Notes under the pieces: generated by a model
What the model saw: the letters and a program-made list of their open reading frames with translations, nothing else
Told to the model about the DNA's origin: nothing
The model's database searches: none
Translations under genes and position numbers: made by a program
Shown here: piece by piece, positions 29,713 to 50,466 of the stretch
How positions within the stretch are numbered: position 1 is the first letter of the stretch
Layout of the letters: every line of letters starts with the position of its first letter
Origin: Candidatus Woesearchaeota archaeon
Lineage (GTDB): Archaea > Nanobdellota > Nanobdellia > Woesearchaeales > UBA9642
DNA: 64,000 nt
NCBI GenBank assembly: GCA_003599145.1
Contig: QZIT01000005.1
Span: 320,330 to 384,329, forward strand
Direction: 5' to 3'

Positions 29713-30978
29713 ATGATTGACCTTAAGCTTATCCGAGAAAATCCTGAACTAGTCAAGGAAAACATCAAAAAGAAATTCCAGAATGAAAAACTGGTTGATG
29801 AAGTTATTCAGTTTGATGAAGAATGGAGAAAACTCAAAGGGCAGGAAGATGCTTTGAGAAGCGAGAGAAATAAAATTTCTGAAGAGATTAACAAGCTGAA
29901 GAAAGAAGGAAAAGACGTATCTTCTGTTGTAAAAAAGGCAAAAGACATCCCTGTAAAGATTCAGGAATCAGAGTCTAGAAGAAAAGAGCTTGAGGAAAAA
30001 ATAAAGCAACATATGCTGAAAATTCCCAATATCATGCATGCATCTGTTCCTATAGGAAAAGATGCTTCTGAAAACGTTGAAGTGCGCAAGTGGGGAAAAC
30101 CAAAAAAGCCAAAGTTTGAACTGCTCAACCATGCAGAACTCATTGAAAATATGGGCTATGCGGATTTCGATGCAGGAAGAAGCAATGCAGGACAGGGCTT
30201 TAATTATTTAATGGGACAAATGGCATTATTGGACAATGCACTGCAAAGATATGGTGTTGACTTTCTCAGAGAAAAAGGATTTAAACTGGTTGTTCCTCCC
30301 TTAACCTTAAACTTTGAAACACTTTTGGGAGCTTTAAATGGGCTTGAAGACTTTGAGCAGGTTGTTTATAAGATAGATAATGAAGATTTGTATTTAATAG
30401 GAACAGCAGAGCATGCGCTGGTATCCTTGTTGAAGAATAAAGTTCTTCAGGAGCTGCCTATGAAATTCTGTGCCGTTACGCCTTGCTTTAGAAAAGAAAT
30501 AGGCGCCCATGGAGTTGACACTAAAGGATTATTCAGAATGCACCAGTTTAACAAAGTAGAGCAGGTTGTTTTTTCAAACCCTGAAAATTCATTTAAAATG
30601 CTTGAAGAAATGCAAAAAATAACAGAGGCGTTCATTAAAAGTTTAGGAATCCCTTACAGGGTTATTGAAATATGCAGCGGCGATTTAGGAGCTAAATTTG
30701 CAAAGCAGTATGACATCGAAGCATGGTTTCCCAGACAGGATAACTATGCAGAGATTACCTCTGCAGGAAGCTGCACTGATTTTCAGGCAAGAGCCCTGAA
30801 TATACGGTATCAAAAGGGAAACGACAAGGAATATGTGCATATTCTGAACAACACCATGGTTGCAACGTCAAGAGTCATGGTTGCCATACTGGAAAACTTT
30901 CAGCAAAAAGACGGCAGTGTCAAAGTTCCCAAAGCATTGGTAAAGTATATGGGCATAAAGAAAATCAGCCCTCAATGA
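29713..30978 (+). CDS. serS: seryl-tRNA synthetase (bacterial/canonical type)
   Basis: The N-terminal coiled-coil arm 'MIDLKLIRENPELVKENIKKKF' is followed by a class II core with motifs 'FRKE', 'RMHQFNKVEQV' and 'GSCTDFQARAL'. Confidence 0.9.
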   Translation: MIDLKLIRENPELVKENIKKKFQNEKLVDEVIQFDEEWRKLKGQEDALRSERNKISEEINKLKKEGKDVSSVVKKAKDIPVKIQESESRRKELEEKIKQHMLKIPNIMHASVPIGKDASENVEVRKWGKPKKPKFELLNHAELIENMGYADFDAGRSNAGQGFNYLMGQMALLDNALQRYGVDFLREKGFKLVVPPLTLNFETLLGALNGLEDFEQVVYKIDNEDLYLIGTAEHALVSLLKNKVLQELPMKFCAVTPCFRKEIGAHGVDTKGLFRMHQFNKVEQVVFSNPENSFKMLEEMQKITEAFIKSLGIPYRVIEICSGDLGAKFAKQYDIEAWFPRQDNYAEITSAGSCTDFQARALNIRYQKGNDKEYVHILNNTMVATSRVMVAILENFQQKDGSVKVPKALVKYMGIKKISPQ

Positions 30979-31165
30979 TGTTTTCTGTTTTAAATTCCTT
31001 TAAAAAATTTCTTTCCTTCACAAACAACAGCTCTATGCCTATAACCACCCCGTTTTTATCAAAGTCAACAAGGGTGTTTTTATCCATTTCCTTAGTGCAG
31101 TCTACGTTTCCCTCACTCAAAGTAATATAAAGAGCGTCTGCATTAGAATCGTAGCGTAGTTTCAT
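30965..31165 (-). CDS. DUF2283-family small protein
   Basis: Taking the internal ATG gives 'MKLRYDSNADALYITLSEG...EMDKNTLVDFDKNGVVIGIELL', the DUF2283 pattern. The longer track ORF 30965..31258 would overlap the upstream gene by 97 nt. With this start the overlap with the upstream DUF4258 gene is ATGA. Confidence 0.55.
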   Translation of the reverse strand: MKLRYDSNADALYITLSEGNVDCTKEMDKNTLVDFDKNGVVIGIELLFVKERNFLKEFKTENIIEG

Positions 31166-31398
31166 TTTATGAAATAAGCAGTGATTATCTTTATATATTT
31201 TTCCTTTAAATAAACAACTTTTAGCGTATAGCCATTTAATTTTTTTATAGCATAACATCTATTAGTTTCCTTGAACGTTATGTCTGGAAAGTGTATGGTT
31301 TCCTCTACCCAAATTTTTTCTATTTTGCGTTCTCGTAATTGCCGTATTGCATGATACGTATATATGAAGTTCACTAAAGTCTTTAAAGCAACAGACAA
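31162..31398 (-). CDS. DUF4258-family small protein (toxin-like partner of DUF2283)
   Basis: The 78-aa product 'MSVALKTLVNFIYTYHAIRQLRERKIEKIWVEETIHFPD...' has the DUF4258 pattern 'H...R...R.I'. The pairing with DUF2283 is common. Confidence 0.5.
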   Translation of the reverse strand: MSVALKTLVNFIYTYHAIRQLRERKIEKIWVEETIHFPDITFKETNRCYAIKKLNGYTLKVVYLKEKYIKIITAYFIK

Positions 31399-31490
31399 TA
31401 TATGCGTTAACCATCCAAAATTGAAAATATTACGGGCAATAGGAGAAATTTTGCATAATATTTATATACTCACTTCTGCAATAGTGCAGT

Positions 31491-31985
31491 ATGCTGTCCA
31501 AGTTTTTGCAGGGTTTGATGTTTGTCAATCAGTTCACTATAGATAATGGACAGGTGGATATTCTGGGAAACAAGCAATTATTGCTGCCTGTGCAGATTAT
31601 TGAATTGCTCAATGACAAAAAAGCGTATGATTTCATCAAGCAAACCGTTAAAATAGGCATGGATGAAGAAATAAGGAAAATAGGCTCTACAACGCCATTA
31701 CAGAGGTTTAACAACCTCAAGGACCTGATGAATACGTTTGGCATTGGCAATATTGATGTGACATTTATTGACTCCAAAAAGCAGAAAGCAATGATTCAGA
31801 TAAATAACAGCACCATAGCGAATTACTACATCAGCCAAAGAAAAAAAACAACGGTTCCTGTATGCGTTATAACTAAAGCAGTGCTTGCAGGCGCGTTCAG
31901 TTCGTTTTTTGGAAAGGATGTTGATTCAGAAGAAACCAAATGCATGAGTTTAGGAGAGAATTACTGCCAGTTTTCAATAAAATAA
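31491..31985 (+). CDS. V4R-domain protein, paralog 1
   Basis: The C-terminus 'PVCVITKAVLAGAFSSFFGKDVDSEETKCMSLGENYCQF' carries the V4R Cys triad. The true start may be 31518 (MFVNQ...). It aligns with the ORF at 33598. Confidence 0.55.
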   Translation: MLSKFLQGLMFVNQFTIDNGQVDILGNKQLLLPVQIIELLNDKKAYDFIKQTVKIGMDEEIRKIGSTTPLQRFNNLKDLMNTFGIGNIDVTFIDSKKQKAMIQINNSTIANYYISQRKKTTVPVCVITKAVLAGAFSSFFGKDVDSEETKCMSLGENYCQFSIK

Positions 31986-32020
31986 AAAGATTTAAATAAA
32001 ACAAAACAGGTGAAAACACT

Positions 32021-32455
32021 ATGATGACCTTAGAAGTTTCTGGAATTATGGTAAAAAACGTAGTGACCTTTACCGTGAAGGATAGTGTAGAGAAAATAGC
32101 AAAGGAAATGACCAAGAAAAATATATCTTGCGTGGTCATTATCGATAAAAAAGGCAAGCCTATTTCTGTCATTACAGAAAGGGATTTGCTGAAAAAAATT
32201 GTCAGCAAAGGCATAACCATAAAAGGATTAATTGCAAAAAACATCATGAGTGACGGCCTGATAACCGTTCAGGGCAATGAAAACGTATTCAGAGCAGCAG
32301 CTTTAATGGAAAAGAAAAAAATAAGAAGGCTGCCTGTGGTTGATAAAACGGGAAAATTAATAGGACTGGTTACTGAAACAGACATTGTCAAATCACTAAC
32401 CAATGTTGCCAAATATCTTAATGATAAACTGATAGAATATATTACTACTGCTTGA
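32021..32455 (+). CDS. CBS-domain pair protein
   Basis: Two CBS motifs are present: 'IMVKNVVTFTVKDSV...ISCVVIIDKKGKPISVITERDLL' and 'IMSDGLITVQGNENV...IRRLPVVDKTGKLIGLVTETDIV'. Confidence 0.8.
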   Translation: MMTLEVSGIMVKNVVTFTVKDSVEKIAKEMTKKNISCVVIIDKKGKPISVITERDLLKKIVSKGITIKGLIAKNIMSDGLITVQGNENVFRAAALMEKKKIRRLPVVDKTGKLIGLVTETDIVKSLTNVAKYLNDKLIEYITTA

Positions 32456-32456
32456 G

Positions 32457-33230
32457 GTGAAAATGATGCAAAGAAGTAAAACAGGAATTAAGGGTTTTGA
32501 TAAATTAGTTGAAGGAGGCTTTCCAGCAGGAACAACCATTTTGTATACAGGAACTCCGGGAACAGGAAAAACAATTTTTGCGCTGGAATATTTATACAAC
32601 GGAGCGACCATGTTCAAGGAAAAAGGGCTGTTTGTTACCTTTGAAGAAAGCAAGGAAGAAGTTTTGGAGCAGGGAAAGCAATTTGGATGGAATTTTGCAG
32701 ATTTGGAAAAGAAAGGATTGCTAAAAATCATAGCCATACCTGCAAGGGAGATTTCCAAAAACACCAGCAACGACATACTGGAAATGTGCAAGAAAGAGAA
32801 ATACAAGAGATTAGTTGTTGATTCGCTTTCGACATTGTCAGTCAATGCACCTATTTTTTCTGTTGCAGAGCATCTTTCCATCAGCGAAGTGGTCAATCAA
32901 AGCACGGTATTCAGCCCGCCTGTTGTAGGAGATTTGATGGTAAAAAGGTTTATTTACGGGTTTATCGATGACTTAAGGCAGATTAATGGGATAACTACCT
33001 TGCTGATAAGCGAAAACAGCATCCATTCAGACTTTTTATCCAGAGATACTGTCTCAGAATTTTTATGCGATGGCGTTATTGTAGTCACGTTTGAAAGTTT
33101 GGGCGGAGCTTACTCAAGATCATTGTTAGTAAGGAAAATGCGACAGACCAAAAACGATGAAGACATTCATCCCTTGGAAATAAACAAGGATGGAGTCATT
33201 ATCCACGACATTGATGAGAAAGGAAAATAA
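32457..33230 (+). CDS. single-domain KaiC/RadA-like ATPase
   Basis: 'GIKGFDKLVEGGFPAGTTILYTGTPGTGKT' (Walker A) and 'LVVDSLS' (Walker B) are present. The start is 1 nt after the CBS gene stop and is preceded by GAGGTGA. Confidence 0.8.
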   Translation: MKMMQRSKTGIKGFDKLVEGGFPAGTTILYTGTPGTGKTIFALEYLYNGATMFKEKGLFVTFEESKEEVLEQGKQFGWNFADLEKKGLLKIIAIPAREISKNTSNDILEMCKKEKYKRLVVDSLSTLSVNAPIFSVAEHLSISEVVNQSTVFSPPVVGDLMVKRFIYGFIDDLRQINGITTLLISENSIHSDFLSRDTVSEFLCDGVIVVTFESLGGAYSRSLLVRKMRQTKNDEDIHPLEINKDGVIIHDIDEKGK

Positions 33231-33548
33231 TTACGGTTGAATGAGCTGTGCATAGTGGCTAAACTCTGGCGATTCTTGGGTATACACATATGCATTAAAA
33301 TCAGGGCCCAACATGCCGATGGGCGGACTCCAATAGGTAACCATTATTTTTTGCGGAGTAGGTTTGCCTTCAAAGAACGCGCCTGTGGTATATGTAGTGA
33401 AATCAGTCGTATCTTTTACTACAACATCTGCAGACTGCACTTGCTGTTCGAGATTATTGATACTTTGAATTGATTTTCCTATGCATGCTGCCGCAATAAC
33501 AGACACTGAAACTATTGCTAAAATTGTTCTAGTTGTTTCTTTCATCAA
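33231..33548 (-). CDS. small secreted hypothetical protein (105 aa)
   Basis: The signal-peptide-like N-terminus is 'MMKETTRTILAIVSVSVIAAACIGKS'. It sits on the opposite strand between cluster genes. Confidence 0.4.
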   Translation of the reverse strand: MMKETTRTILAIVSVSVIAAACIGKSIQSINNLEQQVQSADVVVKDTTDFTTYTTGAFFEGKPTPQKIMVTYWSPPIGMLGPDFNAYVYTQESPEFSHYAQLIQP

Positions 33549-33597
33549 TTGCAGAAAGTGATTTGTGTTTTTAAAGGTTTGGTTAAAGAAATAATAT

Positions 33598-34146
33598 GTG
33601 CAAACACAACATTTTTATACTATTCTTTCTCCTATAAATATCATGCTAAACCCATTTATCCAAAGATTAATGCTTATGAGACAATTTTCCATGGATAATG
33701 CAAAGATTACCTTACTCAAGCAAGAGCAGTTTCTTGTAGATACTGATTTTATATCGCTTGTTCAGGAGATGCACCCAAAAGAATTTTATGACGTCGTTAA
33801 AAAAAATGCTCAGGAAAAAGTTACTGCATATACGCAAGTATTAGGTTCAAGCCCTGAAAACATATCTGAAGAAACATTAAAATCTATGTTTGGAACGCTT
33901 GGTTTTGGCAATGTTCAAATCATGCAATTAAATAAGGAAAAACAAAGGGTTTTTTTAAAACTGCTGGATAGCCCTATTGTTGCTAGCTATAAAAAAATGA
34001 AGAAAAAAAGCAAAGAGCCCGTCTGCATTTTCATTTCCGCAGTACTTGCAGGAGCGTTTCAGGCAATTTTCAAAAAAAATGTTGAATGCAAAGAAACTGA
34101 CTGTACTATAATAAAAGGCGATGGATGTCATTTCATCGTTGAATAA
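33598..34146 (+). CDS. V4R-domain protein, paralog 2
   Basis: The C-terminus 'PVCIFISAVLAGAFQAIFKKNVECKETDCTIIKGDGCHF' has the V4R triad. The N-terminal region 'FSMDNAKITLLKQEQFLVDTDF' aligns with paralog 1 'FTIDNGQVDILGNKQLLLPVQI'. Confidence 0.55.
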   Translation: MQTQHFYTILSPINIMLNPFIQRLMLMRQFSMDNAKITLLKQEQFLVDTDFISLVQEMHPKEFYDVVKKNAQEKVTAYTQVLGSSPENISEETLKSMFGTLGFGNVQIMQLNKEKQRVFLKLLDSPIVASYKKMKKKSKEPVCIFISAVLAGAFQAIFKKNVECKETDCTIIKGDGCHFIVE

Positions 34147-34156
34147 GAGGGTGACA

Positions 34157-34615
34157 ATGAAAACAAAACACATTTTCGTGGCAACATTGGATATCAATGA
34201 ATTATTTCCCTTTTCCGTATCTGATAAAAAAGAAATTGAAGAAGGCTTAAAAGACCAGCAACGGGTAAGGCAAGAACTTGAAAAATTCATAGGCCTATTG
34301 GAAAAACATGGCAACCAGAAAATATTCTATATGGGTTCAGATATCATAGAATCAAAATATTATGAACGATTTCTATTTGAAAAAAACGGCTTTTTAGAAG
34401 TTATGATGGATAAACCGGTAGCTGTCAATGCGCATTTTACAGAAAAAAAGCACGCAGAGAGCTTCTGCAAAGCAATAAAAAAAGCGCTCTTGAATTTATT
34501 ATCAGATACTCCTGTTTCAAAAATGTTCATAGACGCAATAGAAGTACAAACAGAAGCAGAGCAAAGTTTAACGTATCAAACATGGGAACAGATAAAAGAT
34601 ATTCGCAACAAATAA
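34157..34615 (+). CDS. hypothetical protein (~152 aa)
   Basis: The ATG at 34157 is preceded by GGTGA. The longer track ORF from 34121 overlaps the previous gene. Confidence 0.4.
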   Translation: MKTKHIFVATLDINELFPFSVSDKKEIEEGLKDQQRVRQELEKFIGLLEKHGNQKIFYMGSDIIESKYYERFLFEKNGFLEVMMDKPVAVNAHFTEKKHAESFCKAIKKALLNLLSDTPVSKMFIDAIEVQTEAEQSLTYQTWEQIKDIRNK

Positions 34616-34628
34616 GAGGTGAAGTATC

Positions 34629-35936
34629 ATGATTGAGAAATTAATGAAGGGCAAAAAAAATATTTTTATCGGAACAGGCATCAGCTATAAAGATAATCCC
34701 GCAGAGGCAGGCAAAGAAGCAGTGGAAATGGCATTGAAAAATTCTCAATCTCAAAAACCAGAATTTGTTATTATATTTGCTTCAGCAAAGAAATATGGAA
34801 CAGAAGAAAAGATGAATCTCCTTGCTAAAGCAGTTGACACGTATCTCACTTCAATAAACCAAAATATAAAATGGGTTGGTGCATCAAGCAAAAAAGAAAT
34901 TTCAAACTATGGATATACTGAGGGAAGTGTTGTTGCCATGGTCATCAATTCTCCGTATGTACATTTTGGTGTCGGCGTTGGACAGAATGTTACCAAAAAT
35001 TCTCTGAAAGCAGGAGAGCAGGCAGCAGAAAATGCAATTTCAAATGTAAAATTAGATTCCTATCTTGATCCATATTTGCATTTTCAGGCAATAAAAACGC
35101 AAAAAGTAGGAGACATCCTGCGAATGAAGCCTTACTTTTTCATGACTTTGTTTCCCGGAGTAACAAAAAAATATTTACCACAGGACAGCCAAGTGTTAAA
35201 AGGCATAACCAATATCGTCGGAGCACATCCTTTGTTTGGTGGAGATGCTGCAGACGATTGGACATTGACACAAACGTTCACTATTGCCAATGGCGTCGTC
35301 TATAAAGATGCTGTCGTTATTGCCTGCATTGTAAGCAATCTACAGTTTAATGTTGGAGTAAAGCATGGTTATGAACGAACAAACATGGTCATGGTCGTAA
35401 CCAAAGCAAAGGGAGGAGTTATTTATGAACTGAACAACAAACCTGCTGCTCAGGAATATGCCAGATTGACCAATGTTGCTGTTGAAGAATTGCGCAAAGA
35501 TGTCATACCAACACTATCACGAAATCCTATGGGCATGCCTGATAGCCAAGGAGAATATTGGCTAAATTTCCCGTATGCCGTTGTTGAAAAAGATGCGCTA
35601 GCATTTTACGAGCCTATCGCAGAAGGAACTGCTTTATTTATTATGAAAGCCAACAACCAGCAAATAGTCGACGCTGCAAAAACTGCAATTCAAAACGCCA
35701 CTAACAATCTAAAAGAAATTGAAGGTCTTATTGTTTTGAGCTGTTCTGCAAGATTAATTGCTCTAGGCAAAGACATTGAAAAAGAATATGCACTTATTAA
35801 GAAAGTTGTAAAGGATAAACCATTCATTGGTTTCAGCTGTTATGCAGAGCATGCGACCGTACCATCAGGAAGTGTGCAAAAACATGCCTATACATTTGTT
35901 ACGTTAGGATTGACCAACAAACTTATCAGCGACTAA
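34629..35936 (+). CDS. hypothetical protein, possibly a FIST-type sensory domain protein
   Basis: RBS GAGGTGA precedes the ATG. At 435 aa with two-lobed Gly-rich segments (GTGISY..., VGASSK...) it is compatible with FIST_N/FIST_C. I cannot verify this by eye. Confidence 0.3.
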   Translation: MIEKLMKGKKNIFIGTGISYKDNPAEAGKEAVEMALKNSQSQKPEFVIIFASAKKYGTEEKMNLLAKAVDTYLTSINQNIKWVGASSKKEISNYGYTEGSVVAMVINSPYVHFGVGVGQNVTKNSLKAGEQAAENAISNVKLDSYLDPYLHFQAIKTQKVGDILRMKPYFFMTLFPGVTKKYLPQDSQVLKGITNIVGAHPLFGGDAADDWTLTQTFTIANGVVYKDAVVIACIVSNLQFNVGVKHGYERTNMVMVVTKAKGGVIYELNNKPAAQEYARLTNVAVEELRKDVIPTLSRNPMGMPDSQGEYWLNFPYAVVEKDALAFYEPIAEGTALFIMKANNQQIVDAAKTAIQNATNNLKEIEGLIVLSCSARLIALGKDIEKEYALIKKVVKDKPFIGFSCYAEHATVPSGSVQKHAYTFVTLGLTNKLISD

Positions 35937-35996
35937 ACCACGAAAAAGTAGTAAAAAAAGGCAATATTTTTAAATTGTTGAGCATTCTTTTATCAT

Positions 35997-37385
35997 ATGG
36001 ACCAAGCAACATTAGAAACCAGATTAAAAGCATTGCATGATATTGGAGCGCCCGTCAGTATTCCTCAGAATAAAGAAACATTAGTACACAACATTATTGA
36101 AGCTTCAAAGATAACAAGACAGTTTGCAACGCTAGATGTTGACACATTGGTTTATATCTTTACCAAGTATGATGCACTTGTTCACCACCTGAACACGTTA
36201 TTGAAACTTGATGGCAAAAAACCATTGCAAGAACGAGTTGGCCAAGGAAATGTTGCTGCAATATTGCCCTATAATGGTCCATTAATGACCTTCGCATTGG
36301 CATTTGCAGGAGCATATTTGTTTCCTGAAAACAGTTTTGAAATAAAACCTGCAGGAGAATCTCAAAAAGTTTTTGAAAAATTCATAGAAATGATTCCTGA
36401 TGCCGATATGGCTATGCATCTTTATAATGCAAATAGAACTCCTCGCATCAGTACAGAATCAGGAATGAAATTCTTAACACGGCATTTATCACCTGCTTCT
36501 GGAACAAAAGTCATTGAAGTGTATGGTCATGATTCCATGATAACTCCAGAAGTTGAAAAAATGCTGATGGCAAATACGTCTGTACGGTATATTTTAGAAG
36601 GTCCTGGAAAGAATTGGTTTGTTGTGGGAGAAAATCCAGCTTCCGTACGATGTGCTGAAACCATGCTCAAAGCAGGATTGTTGAATTCTGGTCAGAGCTG
36701 TATGGCAGGAGAAATTTATGTTATTCACGATAGCGTTTATGAAAAGATAATAGATTACATATCTAAGCTTGCAAATCACGTGGTTGTGGGAGACCCTCAC
36801 AAAGCATCAACAGATGTTGGCCCCTTAAAAAACAGCCTTGCAAAAAGAATTGAAGAGCAAGTGAAAGACGCTTTGGAAAAGGGAGCAACGATTGCCTATT
36901 GCTCTAAAGAAGCTAAACTTCTAGAAAGAACAGAGCATTTTTATGATATAAACCCTGAAAGATTCAGGCTGATTCCTTACGACGCTGAACACATGCTTGT
37001 TCCCGTTATTATACTAAAAGACGTTACTTCAAAAATGAAAGTAAGACATGATGAAACCTTTGGACCTGTTATTGCTATAGGTAAATATCACCATGGCAGT
37101 GAAATCATTCCTGAATTATGGAGAGCAAGATACGGATTAGAAGCAACGGTGTTTGGAAGTGTGGATACTGCACTCATGCAGACCCTAGATGCCAATTTCG
37201 GTCACATCTTCCAAGATGCCTATTTTCTTGATCCTGGACAATTCGACATTCTTCTAAGCCCTTGGGGTGGAAAGAATTATTCAAGATTTTCTTTGCAGGG
37301 CATTACCAAATATGGAAACGCGGGAATAGAAAAAATTCAGACAGGTCCTGATTATATAGTATTGGATTTCAGCAAAGAGCCATAA
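35997..37385 (+). CDS. aldehyde dehydrogenase superfamily protein (possibly LuxC-like acyl-CoA reductase)
   Basis: 'EGPGKNWFVV' resembles ELGGK. 'LLNSGQSCMAGE' has the catalytic Cys context .N.GQ.C. 'DETFGPV' resembles EIFGPV. The first ~100 aa are atypical for classical ALDH. Confidence 0.6.
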   Translation: MDQATLETRLKALHDIGAPVSIPQNKETLVHNIIEASKITRQFATLDVDTLVYIFTKYDALVHHLNTLLKLDGKKPLQERVGQGNVAAILPYNGPLMTFALAFAGAYLFPENSFEIKPAGESQKVFEKFIEMIPDADMAMHLYNANRTPRISTESGMKFLTRHLSPASGTKVIEVYGHDSMITPEVEKMLMANTSVRYILEGPGKNWFVVGENPASVRCAETMLKAGLLNSGQSCMAGEIYVIHDSVYEKIIDYISKLANHVVVGDPHKASTDVGPLKNSLAKRIEEQVKDALEKGATIAYCSKEAKLLERTEHFYDINPERFRLIPYDAEHMLVPVIILKDVTSKMKVRHDETFGPVIAIGKYHHGSEIIPELWRARYGLEATVFGSVDTALMQTLDANFGHIFQDAYFLDPGQFDILLSPWGGKNYSRFSLQGITKYGNAGIEKIQTGPDYIVLDFSKEP

Positions 37386-37449
37386 AAGTCATTACTTAAA
37401 AATAGTAATATCAGAAAAATTTATAAATAACGCTCTGTTTGCTTCTCTT

Positions 37450-38895
37450 ATGACAGATCAATTCTTCATTCCAACACCTGTTAAAGAAAGAGATTTAGAA
37501 ACGCAGGTAGCTATAGCAGGAACAGGCGGAGTGCACCCTCCTTATCTTTTGGATGATGCAGTTATTGAACATTTTGTTCACAATTTTGATCCGAAAAGAG
37601 CGAAAAAAACATTTGCACAGGTACGAAGAGAAAAACTTGGGACAGAATTGCTTTTTCAAACAAGGCCTGAGTATACTATAGAAGACTGCATGGCAGACGC
37701 TGCAAAACAAGCCTTAGAGCGAGCAGGAATGACCATGAGCGATATTGCAGAAATTCATATTTCAACCGTAAGTCCAACAGACAGAATATCGCGAAGCAGG
37801 TCTGCTGTTTCTGAAAAATTAGGAGTAAATAATATTCCTATTATGGAACTATCTCATGGATGCGCAGGCTCTTTATATGCATTAGAAAGTGGCAGAAGAG
37901 CATCGCTTTTAAAAAATGCACCTATCCTTGTCATAGCAGGAGATGATGTAAGACGAGACGTTATTAACTTACAAGATTGGGCACAATCAGGCATTTTTGG
38001 TTCTGGAGCAGGATCTGCAATACTTGTGCCTGTAAAAAATGGCAAAGGACTGCATCCTGTTAATTTCTGGACAGATACAACCATAACGCCATATGCAAGA
38101 ATGGATCCTATGACTGGAAAATTTGCCATGGATGGAAAAAAGCTTGGAGAACTTGCACCTGCAACTTATCACGCATTTTTAGATTATTTATTGCAAGCGT
38201 ATAACTTACCAAAAGACAAAGTATATGTTATTCCACATCAATTAAACGGTCATCTTATAGAAGAATTTAGAAAACAAGCAGAATTAAGAGAAGATCAAGT
38301 ATTAAATATAGTAAATAGATTTGGAAATACTTCAAATGGTTCTGTGTTACTTGCATTAAATCATGCAATAACTCATCGTCTGAAAATAGGCAATTATGGA
38401 GTTATTTTTGGTGTTGGCGCAGGATTTGATAAGGCATGCAGCATTTACGAACCTGATAGAGAATTAATATTGCCAAGAGTTATCAAAATTCTTATTGCAG
38501 ACGATGAACAAGGAGTTCGGGAAAGCAAGGTGATGGGCTATCAAACATTTTTGGAAGGACATGAAAAACTTCCTCAAAATGTCAGCTTTGAATATCACAC
38601 GGCAACAAGTGGTGAAGAAGCATTCCAAATGGCACTGGAAATCCATCCAGATATTCTGGATTTCGACCAGCGTATGGAAGGCATGAACGGTTCCACTGCT
38701 GCAACCATGATTCATGAAGCACTAGGACCTATTCCTACCGTTATTAATTCTGGCTTCTCTGACGCTGCAGATATGCGAGCATTTGGAGAGTTAAAATTAA
38801 CCAAGCATAGAGAGTACATATTAAAACAGGATATGAACATCATGGACTATGCAAATTTTCTTGTAGAATTTATGTACAAGTCAAATATTTTATAA
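37450..38895 (+). CDS. FabH/KAS III-like condensing enzyme fused to a C-terminal CheY-like receiver (REC) domain
   Basis: The thiolase-fold motifs are 'SHGCAGSLYAL' (Cys), 'GIFGSGAGSAIL', 'VIPHQLNGHLI' (His), 'RFGNTSNGSVLLAL' (Asn) and 'FGVGAGF'. The REC motifs are 'ILIADDE', 'DILDFDQRMEGMNG', 'TVINSGFSD' and 'LKLTKH'. The two parts form one continuous ORF. Confidence 0.75.
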   Translation: MTDQFFIPTPVKERDLETQVAIAGTGGVHPPYLLDDAVIEHFVHNFDPKRAKKTFAQVRREKLGTELLFQTRPEYTIEDCMADAAKQALERAGMTMSDIAEIHISTVSPTDRISRSRSAVSEKLGVNNIPIMELSHGCAGSLYALESGRRASLLKNAPILVIAGDDVRRDVINLQDWAQSGIFGSGAGSAILVPVKNGKGLHPVNFWTDTTITPYARMDPMTGKFAMDGKKLGELAPATYHAFLDYLLQAYNLPKDKVYVIPHQLNGHLIEEFRKQAELREDQVLNIVNRFGNTSNGSVLLALNHAITHRLKIGNYGVIFGVGAGFDKACSIYEPDRELILPRVIKILIADDEQGVRESKVMGYQTFLEGHEKLPQNVSFEYHTATSGEEAFQMALEIHPDILDFDQRMEGMNGSTAATMIHEALGPIPTVINSGFSDAADMRAFGELKLTKHREYILKQDMNIMDYANFLVEFMYKSNIL

Positions 38896-40353
38896 AGGAA
38901 GATATAAGTTTACCATCAATCCTTCTGGTTGATTTTCGATCGTCATATTTCCTTTGTAAGAAGCCATAATCATTTGGCAGCTTTTCAATCCAAAGCCACC
39001 TTTACCTTCGCTGGGAAGTCTTGTAGTATAACTAGTGTCAAATGCTCTTTCAATATCCTTCTCAGGAATGCCTCCTGCATGATCTGAAAATGAAATAACT
39101 ACATATGACTGGTCTACAGTTGTCGTCACTTGCAAAACACGCTTTGGTTCTGGAATACTTTTTCTTTTGTAACTTGCAAGAGCATTGTCTATAAGGTTTT
39201 GAAAAACAGACGCCATTTCCTGACGAGAAACATTGACTTGAGGTGTTGGCCGATAGTCCTTTGAAATGTGCAGTAATCCATCATAAAGAGATAAAACATC
39301 GTCAAGAGACTCCGTAATATTTTGAAGTTTTGCATCCTGCACAGGCTCTGCCAATCGAGACATTCTTAACGTATAACCTTTTAATCTCGCAACAGCTGTT
39401 GCTGCACTCGTCAAGCAAGGATCGACACCGTCATATTTTTGTTTTTTCAGCATTGCATGCGCAATAACAAGATTGTCATCGATAATTTTTGCAACATTGT
39501 TGATATTATGAGCAGCATCTTGAGCCAAATTCGCAAGAACAGAACGACTCTCACTTAAGACAAGCTGATGCTGAGTTGATTGGAGCTCTTCATACAGATG
39601 TTGGCTAATGATAGCATCTGCTACTGCAGATAATGACAGAGTAATTCCTGTAGCCAAGTCTCTTGCTCGTTCAACAAGTTCTAAAGGCACCGGCTCATCG
39701 TCAGCAATATTAAGCTTTTGTCTATCAAGACTTGATAATACAACGTTGCCAACAACATAAACGCCCGTTTCATCAACTTCAACACAAGGCAGTATTACCG
39801 ATCTAGCAAAATCTCCTAAAGTCATGTTCGATTGAGAATATCTCCGAAATGACGTCGTCAAATCAGATAAAAAAGATTCAGGTAATGTTCCTTGTTGTAT
39901 TTGTTCGTTTAAATAAGATTCATTGAGATATGTTTGATAGGGTTCTCCATTTAAAAAAGGGTTTATATGTTCTAGACCAATAGCTACGGAAGCAGGAGTT
40001 TCTAAGTACTCTCCAAGATAAAAAACGCCATCAGTTCCTATTGCAGACACTGCAATAAAACTAGCAATATCTGGGAAATATAATGTCGCTAACTCAGTTC
40101 TTCCCTCTTTAGTTTTTAGCTTCTCTCTTACTGCAGATACACCCAAAGACGTTCTTTGCTGCTGAATTTCTCGTGCATTAGCATAACTTCTCTTCAATTT
40201 AGACGTAATAGGCACATTTGTTTCTATTGACTGGAAAGGAAGCACCTGTAAAATAGACTCTAACCCTTGTCTTAAACCTGCCACTCCTCCATGAAGAACT
40301 ATTCCTTTACGAGAAACTGTCTCAATAGTAGCTGAATCAATAGTGGAACCCAT
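38890..40353 (-). CDS. sensor histidine kinase (cytoplasmic sensor region + HisKA + HATPase_c)
   Basis: The C-terminus has an N-box 'FQNLIDNALAS' and a G-box 'GKGGFGLKSCQ'. There is no TM segment. It converges on the FabH-REC gene and overlaps it by 6 nt. Confidence 0.7.
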   Translation of the reverse strand: MGSTIDSATIETVSRKGIVLHGGVAGLRQGLESILQVLPFQSIETNVPITSKLKRSYANAREIQQQRTSLGVSAVREKLKTKEGRTELATLYFPDIASFIAVSAIGTDGVFYLGEYLETPASVAIGLEHINPFLNGEPYQTYLNESYLNEQIQQGTLPESFLSDLTTSFRRYSQSNMTLGDFARSVILPCVEVDETGVYVVGNVVLSSLDRQKLNIADDEPVPLELVERARDLATGITLSLSAVADAIISQHLYEELQSTQHQLVLSESRSVLANLAQDAAHNINNVAKIIDDNLVIAHAMLKKQKYDGVDPCLTSAATAVARLKGYTLRMSRLAEPVQDAKLQNITESLDDVLSLYDGLLHISKDYRPTPQVNVSRQEMASVFQNLIDNALASYKRKSIPEPKRVLQVTTTVDQSYVVISFSDHAGGIPEKDIERAFDTSYTTRLPSEGKGGFGLKSCQMIMASYKGNMTIENQPEGLMVNLYLPL

Positions 40354-40411
40354 AGAAAAAAAGAATCAAAAACAGTATATAAATTTTACTATTAAATAAT
40401 AGTAAAAAAAT

Positions 40412-40531
40412 TTACTTAAAAGCAAAATTACCCTGCATAGGTCTCGTATCCTCAATCCTTTCCAACTTCTCGCTCTTTACTTTGCGTTTCTTTACAGGTT
40501 TTTTCGCTTTTTTAGCTTTTTTCTTTGCCAT
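40412..40531 (-). CDS. unannotated small Lys-rich protein (39 aa) with strong Shine-Dalgarno
   Basis: The minus strand reads ggaggtgtttattATGgcaaag..., encoding MAKKKAKKAKKPVKKRKVKSEKLERIEDTRPMQGNFAFK*. It is below the track length cutoff. Confidence 0.4.
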   Translation of the reverse strand: MAKKKAKKAKKPVKKRKVKSEKLERIEDTRPMQGNFAFK

Positions 40532-40633
40532 AATAAACACCTCCCCAATAAGCAGTATCATGCATGTCCTAGTATATAAGGATTGCGGTTTAAACTTTCT
40601 TTAGAATTATACGTTCTTGATTCTGATGAAATG

Positions 40634-40987
40634 CTATATGGAACTCGTCAAAAAAACAGTTTCTTCCAAGCAAAATAGGAACCTTTTCAGACAAAACCAA
40701 CACTGGCAGATTAAGCTTTCCCAATCGTTTTTAAATGAAAACAAACAAGAAGAAGTTCTTGCTTTTGCAGATCCGCCAATACCCCTTGTAAGCTTTTCCT
40801 CTCCAAGATCCAAACCTAGCAAAACAGCCAAGTCATAGGGAATGACTGTATTATCTGCTCCAGAGTCTATAAGACCCATAAATTCGTACAATGTTCCCTG
40901 CGTTGACTCTATAAAAACAGGAATGAACGGTGCTTTTTTTAGAATATGCTGTCGTTTTATAGGTTTATACTTAAAAACAAGAGCCAT
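40634..40987 (-). CDS. retropepsin-like (clan AA) aspartic protease
   Basis: 'LIDSGADNTVIP' is the D-S-G-A active-site motif. The start overlaps the stop of the upstream small ORF (TAATG). The C-terminal ~35 aa look atypical, so a frameshift is possible. Confidence 0.5.
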   Translation of the reverse strand: MALVFKYKPIKRQHILKKAPFIPVFIESTQGTLYEFMGLIDSGADNTVIPYDLAVLLGLDLGEEKLTRGIGGSAKARTSSCLFSFKNDWESLICQCWFCLKRFLFCLEETVFLTSSI

Positions 40988-41175
40988 TAGAAAATCAGCG
41001 TTTCCTCTTCCGGTATTTTTGCAATAAAGGGCGTTCCTTTAACTGCTTTAATTTTCTTTTTCAAGTCAAGAATATTCTTTGAGTGGCCAATAACTCTTTG
41101 TTTGTCTATTAAAATCCATTCACCCACATAAGGAGAAACATCCAAATCCAAAAAGTGTTGATAATTTGTTTTCAT
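40987..41175 (-). CDS. small hypothetical protein (62 aa) coupled to the retropepsin-like gene
   Basis: Its stop overlaps the protease start codon. Confidence 0.4.
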   Translation of the reverse strand: MKTNYQHFLDLDVSPYVGEWILIDKQRVIGHSKNILDLKKKIKAVKGTPFIAKIPEEETLIF

Positions 41176-41257
41176 AAACGAAGATAGACCTTTGTTCTTT
41201 TAATATTTTTTGGAACTCAGGTTGGGTAATTTAGGAACTATCTCGTAAGAATTCCGG

Positions 41258-41461
41258 ATGTTTGTGAAGTATGCTGCCATAAAGCATAAAAACAGATGTA
41301 TAAAAATATTCTATATGAAAAACGGTAAAGAACTAAAAATACTAAAATTGATAACTGCCAAATCAAAATTGACAAAAGAAGATGCAATAGAAATAGGAAA
41401 GAAAATAAAAAAATCAATGCATAGGCGATATAAAAAAGAATACCCTGATGAATTTAAATGA
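41258..41461 (+). CDS. small basic hypothetical protein (67 aa)
   Basis: A Lys-rich ORF. An ATGA overlap links it to a further 34-aa basic ORF at 41458-41562. Confidence 0.3.
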   Translation: MFVKYAAIKHKNRCIKIFYMKNGKELKILKLITAKSKLTKEDAIEIGKKIKKSMHRRYKKEYPDEFK

Positions 41462-41596
41462 CAAATCCCTTAAAAGAACTTTATGGAGCATTGAAGTTTA
41501 AGAAATCCGCAAAAAGAACAGTAAAAGAAATAAGAAAACTTTTCAAATCAAAATACGAGTAGATACCTTTAAATACCACCATTTATCTAATGCAGT

Positions 41597-42190
41597 ATGG
41601 TTATTAAAAAATCAATAGAGGAGTCAAAGTCGTTTATGATTAAGGTATTAGACTACGTTTCAAGCCATTTCTGGAGATTGTTCATTGCGCTTTTCATTTT
41701 TTTCATCCTTTCTGTAGTACTGCTCCACGTTACGCCTGTTCCTTTTGTCATTTTGGGTTTTTTATTTCCCATTCTTATTTTGCTGGGAAGCATTTCATTT
41801 ATCAGAAAATCCATCAAAGCATTATTTGACCATCAAAGAAACTTTTCCAAATTATTGTTAAGCTACACCAGTGCAGTGTTTGGCTTTATTTTTCTGTTTA
41901 CGTTAATCTACATCATTTTTGCATCCTTAGGCATAGGCTATCTGCTCTATGGCGGCTGCAATGACCAGTTTGACAGAACTATTTTCACTTCAGAAGACAC
42001 GTCTATGGTGAGAGACCCTATCAGCATCTTTTACTTTTCAGCGATAACATTTTTTACGGTTGGCTATGGAGACATCTGCCCCATGGGAGCAAGCCAGATT
42101 TTTTCCATATTGAACGCATTTGTAGGGCAGGCGTTTACTGCAGTCATCATGGTTTTAGCGCTGTCTTCGTATATGTCGAATAGGGATTAG
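41597..42190 (+). CDS. potassium channel, minimal pore-only type
   Basis: The selectivity filter 'TFFTVGYGD' is flanked by TM helices, in a 197-aa protein. Confidence 0.7.
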   Translation: MVIKKSIEESKSFMIKVLDYVSSHFWRLFIALFIFFILSVVLLHVTPVPFVILGFLFPILILLGSISFIRKSIKALFDHQRNFSKLLLSYTSAVFGFIFLFTLIYIIFASLGIGYLLYGGCNDQFDRTIFTSEDTSMVRDPISIFYFSAITFFTVGYGDICPMGASQIFSILNAFVGQAFTAVIMVLALSSYMSNRD

Positions 42191-43899: not shown

Positions 43900-45492
43900 C
43901 TAACCCTTCGCAATCTTTCTTGCAATACTTTTTCTATGGCGATGTTCATGCTTTTCATACACATACAGATAGCCTATGGCAATGCCCACGGCATAGCATA
44001 TCCCCAATAACAAAGAGCTCAAGAGTGAAAGATGCATGGTCATGATGAAGTATCGCGTAAAATTTACCAAAACAAAAGCATAAATCAAAGAAACAGCAAA
44101 CACAAACACTTCAGGAATTATTTTTATCGTGCTGATATCGTTGGACTTGCTGATAATCTTTATTAAAAAGATGCAGGAGACAATGCCTATAAGCAATGTT
44201 AAAACGTAAATCACGAAGGCGCTTTTTATCAAGGCAATCATCATTAAAATAAGAAAAAACAGCACGAAATAATTAGTCGCCAAAAACAATATCAGCAATA
44301 AAAAGTAAAAATGGGGCTTGTGCAATTGCTTTTTCATGATGGCATAAATCAGCAAGCTTTGATTAACAGAAAAGAACAGCAAAAACAGCAGTTTATCGTA
44401 AAAGAACGTAAAGTTCATTGCAATAAATCCTCTCACGATATTTCCTATGGATGTTCTCAGCAATGCATAGAGGATGGGAATTGAGTAAAAAACAAAAAAG
44501 CCTATGGTTATCAGCAATCCAACAATAACAAACAATGCATACCATTGAATGACTTTTTTTTCATAGGGATGCGGATGAAAAACAAACAACGGCTGAAACT
44601 TGGATTTAATATATAACTTTGTTTTTTCCAGAAGGTTATAAATGCCCAGCCAGTGCTCAAACGCATAGTAGATATCTGTCTTTAAAAAGAATAAAAACTG
44701 CCATAGCAATCCAAAAAACTCTAGTAAAATAATAAATTTCAAAAATCCGTACAGCAAAAGTGAAAAATGAAAAAACATGTCACTGAAAAACAACAGCAAT
44801 AAGGAAACGGCAATCACTAAACAATCTGCAAGCATACCTGCAAAAATAACCCTAAATCGTTTTTCTCTTGACACTGCATACAGGTTGGTAACATCAGTAA
44901 TAGCAACCAAAAAATGCAGTTTGTGGGTAATTCCAAATTTTGCCTTTACCTGCAAAGACCGTGCTGCAAGATAATGTCCGAATTCATGCAGCAATACAAA
45001 AAACCAACCAGCAAGAAAAGACAAGGGAAGCAAAATAATGTAGAGGTCAGTAAAAAAATAATCCCTGCTTCTGGGAAAATACTGGGGGTTCATAATAAGA
45101 ACAGCTAAAGCAAAGAGAAACAGCATAAAATAGACAGTGTATGCCAACGGAGAAAAGAAAGGTCTTGCTATTTTTGGCTGGATAAAATCATAGAGTTTTT
45201 TTGCAGGTTCATCATGCAAGGATTTCTTGTCAAGGGTTTTAACAAATCCGTGCTCTATCAATGCATGAACAAATCCTCTCAGATCAACAAATCCGTGTTT
45301 TGCTCTTACAGCTTTTTCAACAGCATCAAGCGCATGCCCTTTTTTAATTTCCTGAATAATGTCAACTCCAAGCTTAGGCATCAAAACAAAAATCTCTGTT
45401 TTTTCCCTTCCGACAATATAGTGCGATTTATCCTTGGTTATGCTTAAGTCATGCAATCCTAAAACGCTCTTTTTTGAAAAATGAACAGACAT
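43900..45492 (-). CDS. polytopic membrane zinc metalloprotease (HExxH), M50-like
   Basis: 'LLHEFGHYLAARSL' lies within a TM-rich body. The N-terminal ~90 aa form a soluble domain. Confidence 0.5.
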   Translation of the reverse strand: MSVHFSKKSVLGLHDLSITKDKSHYIVGREKTEIFVLMPKLGVDIIQEIKKGHALDAVEKAVRAKHGFVDLRGFVHALIEHGFVKTLDKKSLHDEPAKKLYDFIQPKIARPFFSPLAYTVYFMLFLFALAVLIMNPQYFPRSRDYFFTDLYIILLPLSFLAGWFFVLLHEFGHYLAARSLQVKAKFGITHKLHFLVAITDVTNLYAVSREKRFRVIFAGMLADCLVIAVSLLLLFFSDMFFHFSLLLYGFLKFIILLEFFGLLWQFLFFLKTDIYYAFEHWLGIYNLLEKTKLYIKSKFQPLFVFHPHPYEKKVIQWYALFVIVGLLITIGFFVFYSIPILYALLRTSIGNIVRGFIAMNFTFFYDKLLFLLFFSVNQSLLIYAIMKKQLHKPHFYFLLLILFLATNYFVLFFLILMMIALIKSAFVIYVLTLLIGIVSCIFLIKIISKSNDISTIKIIPEVFVFAVSLIYAFVLVNFTRYFIMTMHLSLLSSLLLGICYAVGIAIGYLYVYEKHEHRHRKSIARKIAKG

Positions 45493-45952: not shown

Positions 45953-46579
45953 ATGGACTATAACCAGAACAAGCTAAAGGCAAAAGAGCGCTTACTTGAC
46001 TTCTTTAAAAAAAAAGGCAAAAGCCCTTTGACAAGCAGCAGAATACCTCCTGGGCAGCACACCGTTTCAGGGTTTCCCGTATTGGATTTAGGCGCTCAAC
46101 CAAGCATGGATCTAAGCATGTGGAAGCTCAAAATAAGCGGCTTGGCCAAAGGAGAGTTTTTCCTTGAAGAACTGAAACAATTAGGCGTTCAGGAATACAC
46201 CAAGGACTTTCACTGTGTCACCAGCTGGACTAAACTTGATGTTGCATGGAAAGGCATACCTATAAAAAACATCCTTAAAAAAGTCAATCCTGACCCTTCC
46301 TGGAAGTTTCTTATACAGTACGGCAAAGACGGCTACAGCACCAATGTTTCCAGAGAAGATATAGAACATGACGATGTTTTTCTTGCCTTTGAGCTGAATC
46401 ATAAGCCAATTCCTAAAGAACACGGCTTTGTAAGGTTGATCATACCGCACTTATACGGATGGAAGGCAAGCAAATTCCTTACAGAGCTTGAGTTTTCTCT
46501 AGAAGATAAGCCTGGATTCTGGGAAGTTAGGGGTTATCACAACAGAGGAAACGCATTCAAAGAAGAACGATATGACTAA
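45953..46579 (+). CDS. sulfite-oxidase-family molybdopterin-binding oxidoreductase domain protein
   Basis: The Moco-domain pattern 'HCVTSWTKLDVAWKGIPIKNIL...GYSTNV...HGFVRLIIPHLYGWKASKFLTELEF' is present. Confidence 0.65.
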   Translation: MDYNQNKLKAKERLLDFFKKKGKSPLTSSRIPPGQHTVSGFPVLDLGAQPSMDLSMWKLKISGLAKGEFFLEELKQLGVQEYTKDFHCVTSWTKLDVAWKGIPIKNILKKVNPDPSWKFLIQYGKDGYSTNVSREDIEHDDVFLAFELNHKPIPKEHGFVRLIIPHLYGWKASKFLTELEFSLEDKPGFWEVRGYHNRGNAFKEERYD

Positions 46580-46616: not shown

Positions 46617-47627
46617 ATGGCTGAAGAGAAAACATCAAGGCTTTTCTTCTTTATCATACTGTTAATTTTTCTGATACTGACTTTTCTATTAATACGCCCT
46701 TTTTTCGGCTATATTGTTTTAGGCATTATTTTGGCAATCATCTGCTTTCCTGTTTATCAATGGCTTGTTAGAAAGATAAAGCATGAGAATACTGCCGCAG
46801 GCATCATGATTGTGCTTATCTTGCTTTTAATCATCATCCCTAGTTTTCTCGTTGTCAACAAATTAGTGATTGAAACCAAAAAAGCAGTTATTGGTTTTGG
46901 CAATGAAGGAGCATTTTCTTCAGCAATAGACAATCTTGAAGAAAAAACAGGCATTGACATCAGAGTGTATGTTTCGAACATTTTTCTCACCGTAAAAAAC
47001 TATATTATAAGCGCTGCTCCGAAACTCATTACGAGCATAGCAGGCATTCTTTTAGGGATTTTTGTCATGTTTTTCATCATGTTCTATACGTTCAAAGGCG
47101 GCAATCAATTGCTAGAGGAATTTAAAGAGCTGCTGCCTTTAAAGAAAAAATACAAGGTAAAGCTCTTCAGCGAAACAGAAAACGTCATCAAGGGCGTTCT
47201 GTATGGACAGGTTGTTACTGCGTTTGTTCAGGGAATTCTTGGATGGCTGGTACTTTTTATTTTTGGAGTTCCCAATCATTTATTCTGGGGATTTATCATG
47301 CTGATCCTTGCATTCCTTCCTGTTGTCGGCACTCCGCTGATATTTGTTCCTGCAGGCATATACATGCTTCTCCATGGGAATATTACCTCAGGCATGTTGA
47401 TTCTCATACTGGGATTTACCATAGTCATGAATATTGACAATTATATCAAACCAAAGCTCATTAGCAACAAAACAAAGATTCCTCCTGTTGTTGCACTTAT
47501 TGGAGTCTTAGGAGGATTTGCCGTGTTTGGATTTGTAGGCATCATTTTAGGACCATTGATTATTGCACTCTTTATGGTGCTCCTGCGATTCTACAATGAA
47601 GACTTTAAAGAAAGCATTAACGAATAA
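46617..47627 (+). CDS. AI-2E family transporter (PerM/UPF0118)
   Basis: The protein is polytopic. Family-typical segments are 'LYGQVVTAFVQGILGW', 'FLPVVGTPLIFVPAGI' and 'PVVALIGVLGGFAVFGFVGIILGP'. Confidence 0.75.
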   Translation: MAEEKTSRLFFFIILLIFLILTFLLIRPFFGYIVLGIILAIICFPVYQWLVRKIKHENTAAGIMIVLILLLIIIPSFLVVNKLVIETKKAVIGFGNEGAFSSAIDNLEEKTGIDIRVYVSNIFLTVKNYIISAAPKLITSIAGILLGIFVMFFIMFYTFKGGNQLLEEFKELLPLKKKYKVKLFSETENVIKGVLYGQVVTAFVQGILGWLVLFIFGVPNHLFWGFIMLILAFLPVVGTPLIFVPAGIYMLLHGNITSGMLILILGFTIVMNIDNYIKPKLISNKTKIPPVVALIGVLGGFAVFGFVGIILGPLIIALFMVLLRFYNEDFKESINE

Positions 47628-50435: not shown

Positions 50436-50466
50436 AAGAATAAATCGCCAAACTTGATTTATAAAG

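Follow-up and report, generated by a model that had tools for sequence, protein, structure and literature searches.

What function could bring together, in the genome of a Candidatus Woesearchaeota archaeon, genes for V4R, CBS, KaiC-like, FIST, aldehyde dehydrogenase (ALDH) and FabH-like proteins and a histidine kinase? We analyzed a stretch of 64,000 nucleotides from contig QZIT01000005.1 (assembly GCA_003599145.1, positions 320,330 to 384,329), hereafter the window, in which these genes lie between positions 31491 and 40353. The FabH-like enzyme is fused to a receiver domain (FabH::REC), and one further gene encodes a small protein that we refer to as HYP. An original prediction, made from the sequence and its open reading frames (ORFs), had described these genes as a candidate locus for signal synthesis and sensing. 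Scans with Pfam and NCBIfam confirmed all of the domains that it had named (two V4R proteins, CBS, KaiC-like, FIST, ALDH superfamily, FabH-REC and kinase), and the FIST and V4R assignments, whose failure in searches with hidden Markov models (HMMs) it had taken as grounds for rejection, both passed the Pfam HMMs. Our analysis suggested that the locus represents a conserved archaeal sensory-plus-enzymatic module in one of its variants, in which the FIST protein would act through the kinase on FabH::REC, with a second regulatory branch beside this route; we assign this reading a probability of roughly 0.55. The core of the module consists of HYP, one or more V4R proteins, a stand-alone FIST protein, one or more KaiC-like ATPases, and an exchangeable set of two or three enzymes that act on carboxylate, acyl-thioester or aldehyde groups.

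A gene set that recurs with a new protein family

An alignment of HYP relatives was used for a metagenome scan that yielded 40 loci; their ORFs were called and clustered, and the clusters were annotated (loci are designated here by L numbers). Co-occurrence was counted in the 17 non-redundant HYP-containing loci of at least 8 kb. A FIST gene was present in 16 of the 17, an ALDH/LuxC-type gene in 15, and V4R and KaiC genes in 14 each; a kinase gene was found in 10, a PaaK/LuxE-like gene in 9 and a FabH gene in 4. Gene order and strand were shuffled among the HYP loci, and their GC content ranged from 0.27 to 0.62. The recurrent set can be written as (2-TM protein) KaiC - V4R - FIST - adenylating enzyme - ALDH/LuxC-type - HYP - (KaiC - V4R - KaiC - inactivated KaiC), where TM stands for transmembrane, and many loci have contiguous genes with overlaps in the order KaiC-V4R-FIST-enzyme-enzyme-HYP. 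The archaeal markers PolD DP2 and AglB in the flanks of L029 and L041 indicated that the contigs are archaeal. The module was found in archaeal contigs only, and the named ones belong to Candidatus Woesearchaeota (DPANN).

Conservation of the gene order in relatives had been put forward as a test of the prediction, and the same order was recovered in L004 and L006, with the content recurring in rearranged form in archaeal metagenome contigs. The window, L004 and L006 have in common the order SerRS-V4R-CBS-KaiC ... V4R-HYP-FIST-(cassette)-<HK (SerRS, seryl-tRNA synthetase; HK, histidine kinase; <, reverse orientation). L004 has two inserted genes between KaiC and the second V4R gene, and its cassette is ALDH-FabH::REC-<HK with a fusion that is 45% identical to that of the window; L002 keeps FabH::REC-<HK. 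Compared with L004 and L006, the window KaiC is 79-81% identical, HYP 67-69% and the second V4R protein (V4R2) 62%, whereas SerRS is just 50-51% identical. On this comparison, the regulatory core is under stronger constraint than the housekeeping synthetase. The first V4R protein (V4R1) shares 43-50% identity with the same-position orthologs, and only L004 and L006 have a CBS ortholog, 56-59% identical, between V4R1 and KaiC. Identity between the window and L004 was 39% for FIST, 25% for ALDH and 30% for the kinase (C-terminal half only). Toxin-antitoxin pairs were observed inside two loci, an NTase/HEPN pair between CBS and KaiC in L006 (4750-5212) and a DUF7557/ParE pair between FabH::REC and the kinase in L054 (13053-13539), and the boundaries of the module thus seem to tolerate insertions.

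HYP, which had been listed merely as a hypothetical protein, indeed belongs to no family in Pfam, NCBIfam or PADLOC; it proved, however, to be the most diagnostic component and the marker of the whole module. A word-index search returned 21 relatives, and an exhaustive profile search of 1.84 billion proteins placed the family in only 99 representative clusters, one of which is named Candidatus Woesearchaeota archaeon CG1_02_33_12. The AlphaFold2 model of HYP (pLDDT 84, pTM 0.79) shows an alpha+beta fold with about six strands, and residues H5, D12, E81 and, mostly, H93 are kept across all forms. An assignment to the CYTH or triphosphate-tunnel metalloenzymes was rejected because the ExExK motif is absent (strand 1 reads KHIFVA); there are also about six strands and not eight. 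Some forms carry two C-terminal TM helices. In surface proteins of 690-1550 aa, HYP forms the cytoplasmic domain, preceded by a signal or TM segment, Ig-like and Cys-rich extracellular regions and a TM helix; in L055, genes for soluble HYP and V4R proteins come after a receptor-like HYP gene of this kind.

Genes for M50 peptidases adjoin HYP in L015, L020, L023, L024, L053 and L054, and rhomboid genes recur near HYP loci, which raised the possibility that membrane-tethered forms of HYP are cleaved by intramembrane proteolysis. The M50 protein of the window is an ortholog of these, with 36-38% identity, and its gene sits 3.5 kb past the kinase with unrelated genes in between. We also observed a winged-helix-like protein of 85-88 aa encoded after or near HYP in at least 10 loci (L013, L014, L015, L020, L024, L028-30, L043, L045 and L053; for example, L014 10500-10763). 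It is absent from the window, and the sole member scanned, from L029, had no Pfam match; through this protein, the module may act on transcription. The 87-aa gene that follows HYP in sister loci was considered as a detached TM tail of HYP, and this was rejected because its product resembles a small winged-helix protein.

The enzymes of the module vary from locus to locus. In an alignment of 17 locus ALDHs, the catalytic Cys was invariant and two types could be distinguished. Type A, found in the window, L004, L028/29 and L032, keeps the general-base Glu and the PWGG motif and is partnered by FabH (none was seen in L032). Type B, found in the remaining loci, has lost both, as in LuxC-like reductases, and is partnered by an adenylating enzyme that matches PaaK in the PDB. 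L014 pairs a full-length LuxE (1.8e-37) with LuxC (1e-35), and L014, L040 and L041 have the LuxC features (PF05893, loss of the general-base Glu and a LuxE/PaaK-like partner). L006, a close relative of the window, holds a PaaK-like enzyme, a type B (LuxC-like) ALDH and a Rossmann::REC protein in the enzyme slot. L053 reads V4R-FIST-ALDH-FabH::REC-<HK-<M50-HYP-TM protein-wHTH-...-rhomboid-KaiC-KaiC (wHTH, winged helix-turn-helix), and L015 and L020 share this frame but carry a PaaK-like enzyme, a LuxC-like enzyme and an ApbA-like reductase::REC. Further variants are a REC::methyltransferase in L008 and L019, a short-chain dehydrogenase/reductase (SDR) ketoreductase and a crotonase added to FabH and ALDH in L029 and L054, a class IV aminotransferase added in L047 and L050, and a PlsC acyltransferase in L008. 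The receiver domain is borne by at least four unrelated enzymes, and the receiver-bearing proteins of L006 and L015 showed no significant similarity outside the receiver domain. These results revealed that the enzyme slot is a swappable cassette inside one regulatory frame.

The putative relay and its enzymes

In the NosP/NosK/NosR system, the kinase has no sensor domain of its own and is bound and controlled by a stand-alone FIST protein encoded next to it; the target of its phosphorylation is a regulator whose output is enzymatic (PMC12570481). Like this nitric oxide-sensing system of Proteobacteria, the window encodes a FIST_N+FIST_C protein, a kinase with DHp and CA regions and no recognized sensor, and a receiver with an enzyme output. 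FIST and the kinase occur in one locus in the window, L004, L006, L008, L015, L019, L034-36, L053 and L054, and L010 was the one kinase-bearing locus with sufficient flanking sequence that had no FIST. No solved relative of the FIST protein was found by sequence. In the kinase, neither a HisKA nor a sensor domain was recognized; HATPase_c was the only domain found, likewise in 10 related kinases. Residues H282 and N286 (an H-x3-N box), N390, D424 and G453/G455 are kept in 11 locus-linked kinases. No TM helix was predicted, and its earlier description as cytoplasmic therefore stands.

The receiver of FabH::REC scored 28.1 bits with the Pfam family Response_reg, slightly under the cut-off of 30.2. 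Its residues D351/D352, D406, S434 and K459 lie on a modeled (beta-alpha)5 fold comprising residues 343-477 (pLDDT 80-94). All five FabH::REC genes that are linked to a kinase retain the acceptor Asp. In the FabH::REC of L052 (P0003), Thr replaces this Asp, and kinase, FIST and V4R genes are all absent nearby.

On the pattern of the NosP/NosK/NosR layout, of which the window has three parts, we propose a route from FIST to the kinase (H282), the receiver (D406) and the activity of the FabH-like enzyme. By analogy with NosP and NosK, the cytoplasmic kinase, which lacks a sensor of its own, would have the FIST protein as its auxiliary ligand sensor. The kinase would autophosphorylate at His282 and pass the phosphoryl group to Asp406 of the FabH-fused receiver, and this phosphorylation may switch the activity or the assembly of the FabH-like enzyme. 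This enzyme and the adjacent ALDH would act in one pathway on a small molecule of the acyl or aldehyde type. The connections between the proteins, the direction of regulation, the chemistry of the product and the biological role are what we infer from the arrangement and conservation of these genes.

Catalytic residues were found intact in alignments of both enzymes. The ALDH scored 137.8 bits against a Pfam Aldedh cut-off of 23 and reached no NCBIfam equivalog; when it is aligned with a solved ALDH, the catalytic positions are taken by Asn93, Glu201 (LEGPGKN), Cys235 and Glu353, and the PWGG motif is present. It had been described as an ALDH-superfamily or LuxC-like reductase. The first alternative was upheld and the second rejected, as no LuxC (PF05893) match was obtained at E <= 0.01, Glu201 is retained, and the window holds no gene for an adenylating enzyme. 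The window ALDH is thus best regarded, from its sequence, as a divergent member of the hydrolytic type that has kept the general-base Glu. Its orthologs (35-50% identity) are always encoded directly upstream of FabH or FabH::REC, and the ALDH and FabH genes often overlap.

The triad Cys138/His263/Asn293 of the FabH part aligns with that of Staphylococcus aureus FabH and is invariant in 8 homologs at 23-55% identity. The Arg that follows HQAN in the S. aureus enzyme, which we take to have a role in docking of the acyl carrier protein (ACP), is a His in the window (HQLNGH). The best structural matches found with Foldseek were FabH, PqsD and BioZ, FabH being the best, with a TM-score to the target of about 0.7. 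A word-index search of 5.8 billion proteins gave four FabH::REC fusions, and more were found through ALDH neighbors; besides the clade of the fusion itself, with members 45-55% identical, the matches in the large database were plain FabH proteins of ~330 aa without a receiver. A genome-contig scan based on FabH::REC returned only an unrelated bacterial receiver domain. The suggestion that ALDH and KAS III enzymes work on an acyl-derived molecule under sensor control gained support, as an idea, from the intact catalytic residues, the constant ALDH-FabH adjacency and the other acyl and aldehyde enzymes in the sister slots.

The remaining proteins may form the second branch, in which V4R2 and HYP would act with V4R1, CBS and KaiC; V4R would bind a hydrophobic ligand, CBS would read adenine nucleotides and KaiC would be an ATP-driven switch. 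HYP might be an adaptor or a small catalytic domain, which elsewhere is anchored to the membrane or to receptors at the surface. V4R1 and V4R2 reached 51.4 and 39.6 bits (PF02830 cut-off, 31) and are 31% identical to each other. V4R1 gave weak matches to MetOD1 and to the C terminus of MsvR, and V4R2 matched the solved V4R protein MJ1460 (2osd). Both have a C-terminal Cys cluster (V4R1, 125/151/159; V4R2, 128/149/154/162). The window KaiC is a single domain with Walker A (GTPGTGKT, 32-39), the motif TFEES (61-65) with the EE catalytic pair, and Walker B (LVVDS, 119-123); its best NCBIfam scores were far under the cut-offs. A circadian KaiC was considered and rejected, because there is one domain in place of the duplicated RecA-like domains and no KaiA or KaiB family among the scanned neighbors.

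Layout of the locus and its flanks

The features of the locus are collected in Table 1. The original prediction had treated the eight plus-strand genes as a single array. Because a minus-strand ORF lies inside the gap of 412 nt between KaiC and V4R2 (33231-33642), the array consists instead of two plus-strand units or operons, V4R1-CBS-KaiC and V4R2-HYP-FIST-ALDH-FabH::REC. The minus-strand genes in the corresponding gap of L004 and L006 differ from the ORF of the window. The start proposed for V4R2, 33598, is probably to be moved to the ATG at 33643, since the alignments of orthologs begin at Met16 of the longer ORF and a TATA-like TTTTTATA lies just 5' of this ATG. Another TATA-like element, ATTTATATA, was seen by eye ~25 nt 5' of V4R1.

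Table 1. Genes of the locus, with one possible outlying member, in coordinates of the window
Feature	Position	Strand	Length (aa)	Remarks
V4R paralog 1 (V4R1)	31491..31985	+	164	Pfam V4R 1.2e-13; opens the V4R1-CBS-KaiC unit
Stand-alone CBS pair	32021..32455	+	144	Pfam CBS, 2 stretches, 4.8e-31
Single-domain KaiC-like ATPase	32457..33230	+	257	Pfam KaiC 9.6e-54
Minus-strand ORF	33231..33545	-	104	Lipoprotein-like signal peptide MKETTRTILAIVSVSVIAAAC...; no Pfam family
V4R paralog 2 (V4R2)	33643..34146 (revised start; ORF from 33598)	+	167	Pfam V4R 5.8e-10; opens the second unit
HYP	34157..34615	+	152	New family
Stand-alone FIST_N+FIST_C protein	34629..35936	+	435	Pfam FIST 3.8e-33, FIST_C 4.2e-22
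Aldehyde dehydrogenase, type A	35997..37385	+	462	Pfam Aldedh 5.4e-40
FabH::REC	37450..38895	+	481	ACP_syn_III, ACP_syn_III_C, Response_reg; FabH ~1-340, REC ~343-477
Histidine kinase	38890..40353	-	487	HATPase_c 1.7e-13; convergent with FabH::REC
Peptidase M50 (site-2 protease)	43900..45492	-		Pfam Peptidase_M50; possible outlying member, uncertain

The FabH::REC and kinase genes share 6 nt (38890-38895) at their convergent ends, and such an overlap is also present in L004 (14 nt), L002 (15 nt) and L053 (6 nt); its retention hints at coupled termination or antisense effects. No RNA family of Rfam was found in 30900-41600 at E <= 0.1. A promoter and terminator scan gave no more than the shuffle expectation, and its sigma-70 model is uninformative for an archaeon. 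A Lys-rich ORF of ~39 aa (MAKKKAKKAKKPVKKRKV...) was spotted by eye at 40412-40531 on the minus strand, upstream of the kinase promoter region.

In the family scan of the window proteins, the upstream flank held a PIN-ATPase-KH protein, SerRS and DUF2283, and the downstream flank an Asp-protease-like gene, a K+ channel, a metallophosphoesterase, a nucleotidyltransferase and the M50 protease. Two plus-strand genes are divergent from the M50 gene, a small one with a molybdopterin-oxidoreductase domain (45953-46579) and one for an AI-2E family transporter (46617-47627). A glycogen-metabolism cluster at 47617-56128, with an amylo-alpha-1,6-glucosidase (GDE_C) and a glycogen synthase, looks like ordinary carbon storage. 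Two giant proteins, probably surface proteins, are encoded at 14051-19777 (+; 1908 aa, with Laminin_G_3 and galactose-binding-like domains) and at 8695-12246 (-; 1183 aa, without a Pfam family), and neither has a HYP domain at its end.

Competing readings, known systems and meaning

Several observations weigh against the proposed module. Many of the loci come from related metagenome lineages, and some of the co-occurrence may therefore reflect shared ancestry. The FabH part fell below both curated NCBIfam cut-offs, with 123 bits against 249 for NF006829 and 120.6 against 292 for TIGR00747. The FIST protein scored 133.5 bits, far under the NosP cut-off of 450 (NF041558), so that the NosP mechanism can be transferred by analogy only. 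The model of the whole FabH::REC protein is moderate (pLDDT 69) and does not reliably give the contacts between receiver and enzyme. The locus encodes no acyl-CoA ligase, malonyl-CoA source or exporter, and general family scans of the window, with no screen aimed at them, revealed neither an ACP nor a malonyl-CoA:ACP transacylase; the substrate and the product are thus not deducible from the locus. In L010 (817-6732), HYP stands beside a patatin, a GH3 acyl-amido synthetase, an MR/MLE-type enzyme and a related histidine kinase, which illustrates the breadth of variation in the enzyme slot. Finally, the window, L004 and L006 all have unrelated genes that split the two units, L052 has the ALDH-FabH pair without sensors and indeed alone, and V4R, FIST and KaiC are missing beside HYP where its context is short or divergent (for example, L010, L021 and L022). 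These last three observations are what would be expected if the locus were three independent neighbors without a common pathway, namely a KaiC/V4R/CBS regulator, V4R/HYP/FIST sensors and an ALDH-FabH::REC-HK pair. We consider this explanation quite unlikely. The parts co-occur in 14-16 of the 17 long loci despite the shuffled order and strand and the wide GC range, the genes are contiguous and overlapping in many loci, and the acceptor Asp is gone from the FabH::REC that has no kinase; the co-occurrence counts and the Asp-to-Thr correlation weaken simple juxtaposition.

The cassette enzymes raise a different question, because all of them are of the acyl, aldehyde or lipid type (patatin/GH3 in L010, PlsC in L008, LuxE/LuxC in L014, FabH-SDR-crotonase-ALDH in L029 and L054), which makes lipid handling a serious rival. 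Under this explanation, the locus would be a regulated module for the salvage and remodeling of lipids and fatty acids and not a signal synthase; it would use scavenged acyl chains, V4R proteins would be carriers or sensors of hydrophobic ligands, and the two-component system and KaiC would match activity to supply. The ties of HYP to membranes (2-TM forms, receptor tails, M50 and rhomboid genes nearby) are consistent with this, as is the source of the window, a metagenome-assembled genome of Woesearchaeota, since DPANN archaea depend on partners for lipids. However, fatty acids are not the main membrane lipid of archaea, and the locus has no transporter, lipid-binding periplasmic protein, or glycerol-phosphate or isoprenoid enzyme. 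Moreover, the cassettes differ between close relatives (FabH::REC in the window, PaaK-like + LuxC-like + Rossmann::REC in L006) at 69-81% core identity. Such a change would be unusual for housekeeping salvage and better fits a diversifying secondary or signal chemistry, and we regard lipid salvage as possible rather than probable. A tentative extension in the direction of signaling, which we think rather unlikely, is a chemical-communication system of DPANN archaea, in which swappable synthase cassettes would make lineage-specific acyl or aldehyde molecules, V4R and FIST receptors would read them, KaiC and the kinase would integrate the input, and HYP would couple giant host-contact receptors, possibly via M50 or rhomboid cleavage. 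An island for anti-virus defense or stress was also considered. KaiC-like and STAND-type NTPases, toxin-antitoxin pairs and enzymes for small-molecule alarms are typical of defense islands, and the pairs inside L006 (NTase/HEPN) and L054 (ParE) and a STAND-like AAA_16 ATPase near HYP in L021 recall this pattern. But the pairs are insertions that are absent from the window, none of the window proteins matched a PADLOC model at E <= 0.001, and there is no nuclease and no effector of the protease or membrane-disrupting kind, which leaves this explanation highly improbable.

The module built on FIST, the kinase and FabH::REC, with its second branch, resembles several known systems in part. KaiC-like ATPases have reportedly been proposed as signaling hubs of archaea by Makarova, Galperin and Koonin (mBio, 2017; ref. 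41 of PMC5847659), and as in such hubs, the single-domain KaiC of the window adjoins small sensors or adaptors, with inactivated KaiC (DUF7504) in sister loci; unlike in the circadian Kai system, it has no KaiA or KaiB partner and is not a double-domain protein. Like FabH, PqsD and BioZ, its best matches in sequence and structure, the FabH part has a thiolase fold and a Cys-His-Asn triad, whereas it is only 21-24% identical to them, receiver-fused and below the FabH cut-offs. The sister loci that hold LuxE+LuxC or PaaK-like+LuxC-like genes in the slot of ALDH+FabH::REC recall the LuxC-LuxE fatty-acid reductase of luminous bacteria (PMC9157457); in contrast, the window has neither a LuxE/PaaK-like gene nor a luciferase, and its ALDH keeps the general-base Glu. 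With respect to NosP/NosK/NosR, the regulator of the window is a KAS III enzyme with a C-terminal receiver, whereas NosR is a c-di-GMP enzyme; furthermore, the host is an archaeon, V4R, HYP, KaiC, CBS and ALDH are added, and the FIST score is 133 against 450 bits. The two-component logic is a variation on the known FIST-kinase-regulator kind. The text of a census of archaeal two-component systems (PMC5847659) mentions neither FabH nor FIST, and our literature searches, in which the neighborhood tables of the 2017 KaiC-hub study lay outside the comparison, found no description of this neighborhood; such absence is not proof of novelty. As a system, the wider module of HYP, V4R, FIST, KaiC and cassette may be new.

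With their tiny genomes, DPANN archaea spend their lives attached to other cells, and how they sense their partners and regulate their metabolism is largely obscure. Against this background, the organism of the window devotes ~9 kb to one module. The module offers a response regulator with a condensing enzyme of the fatty-acid type as its output, which would place a biosynthetic enzyme under direct control by phosphorylation. It also offers a new domain family of 150 aa, well folded in the model, which serves in addition as the intracellular tail of giant surface proteins. The varied acyl and aldehyde cassettes plugged into one regulatory frame constitute a natural experiment. Should the product prove to be a signal, few if any communication systems of DPANN archaea would have been defined at the molecular level before this one.

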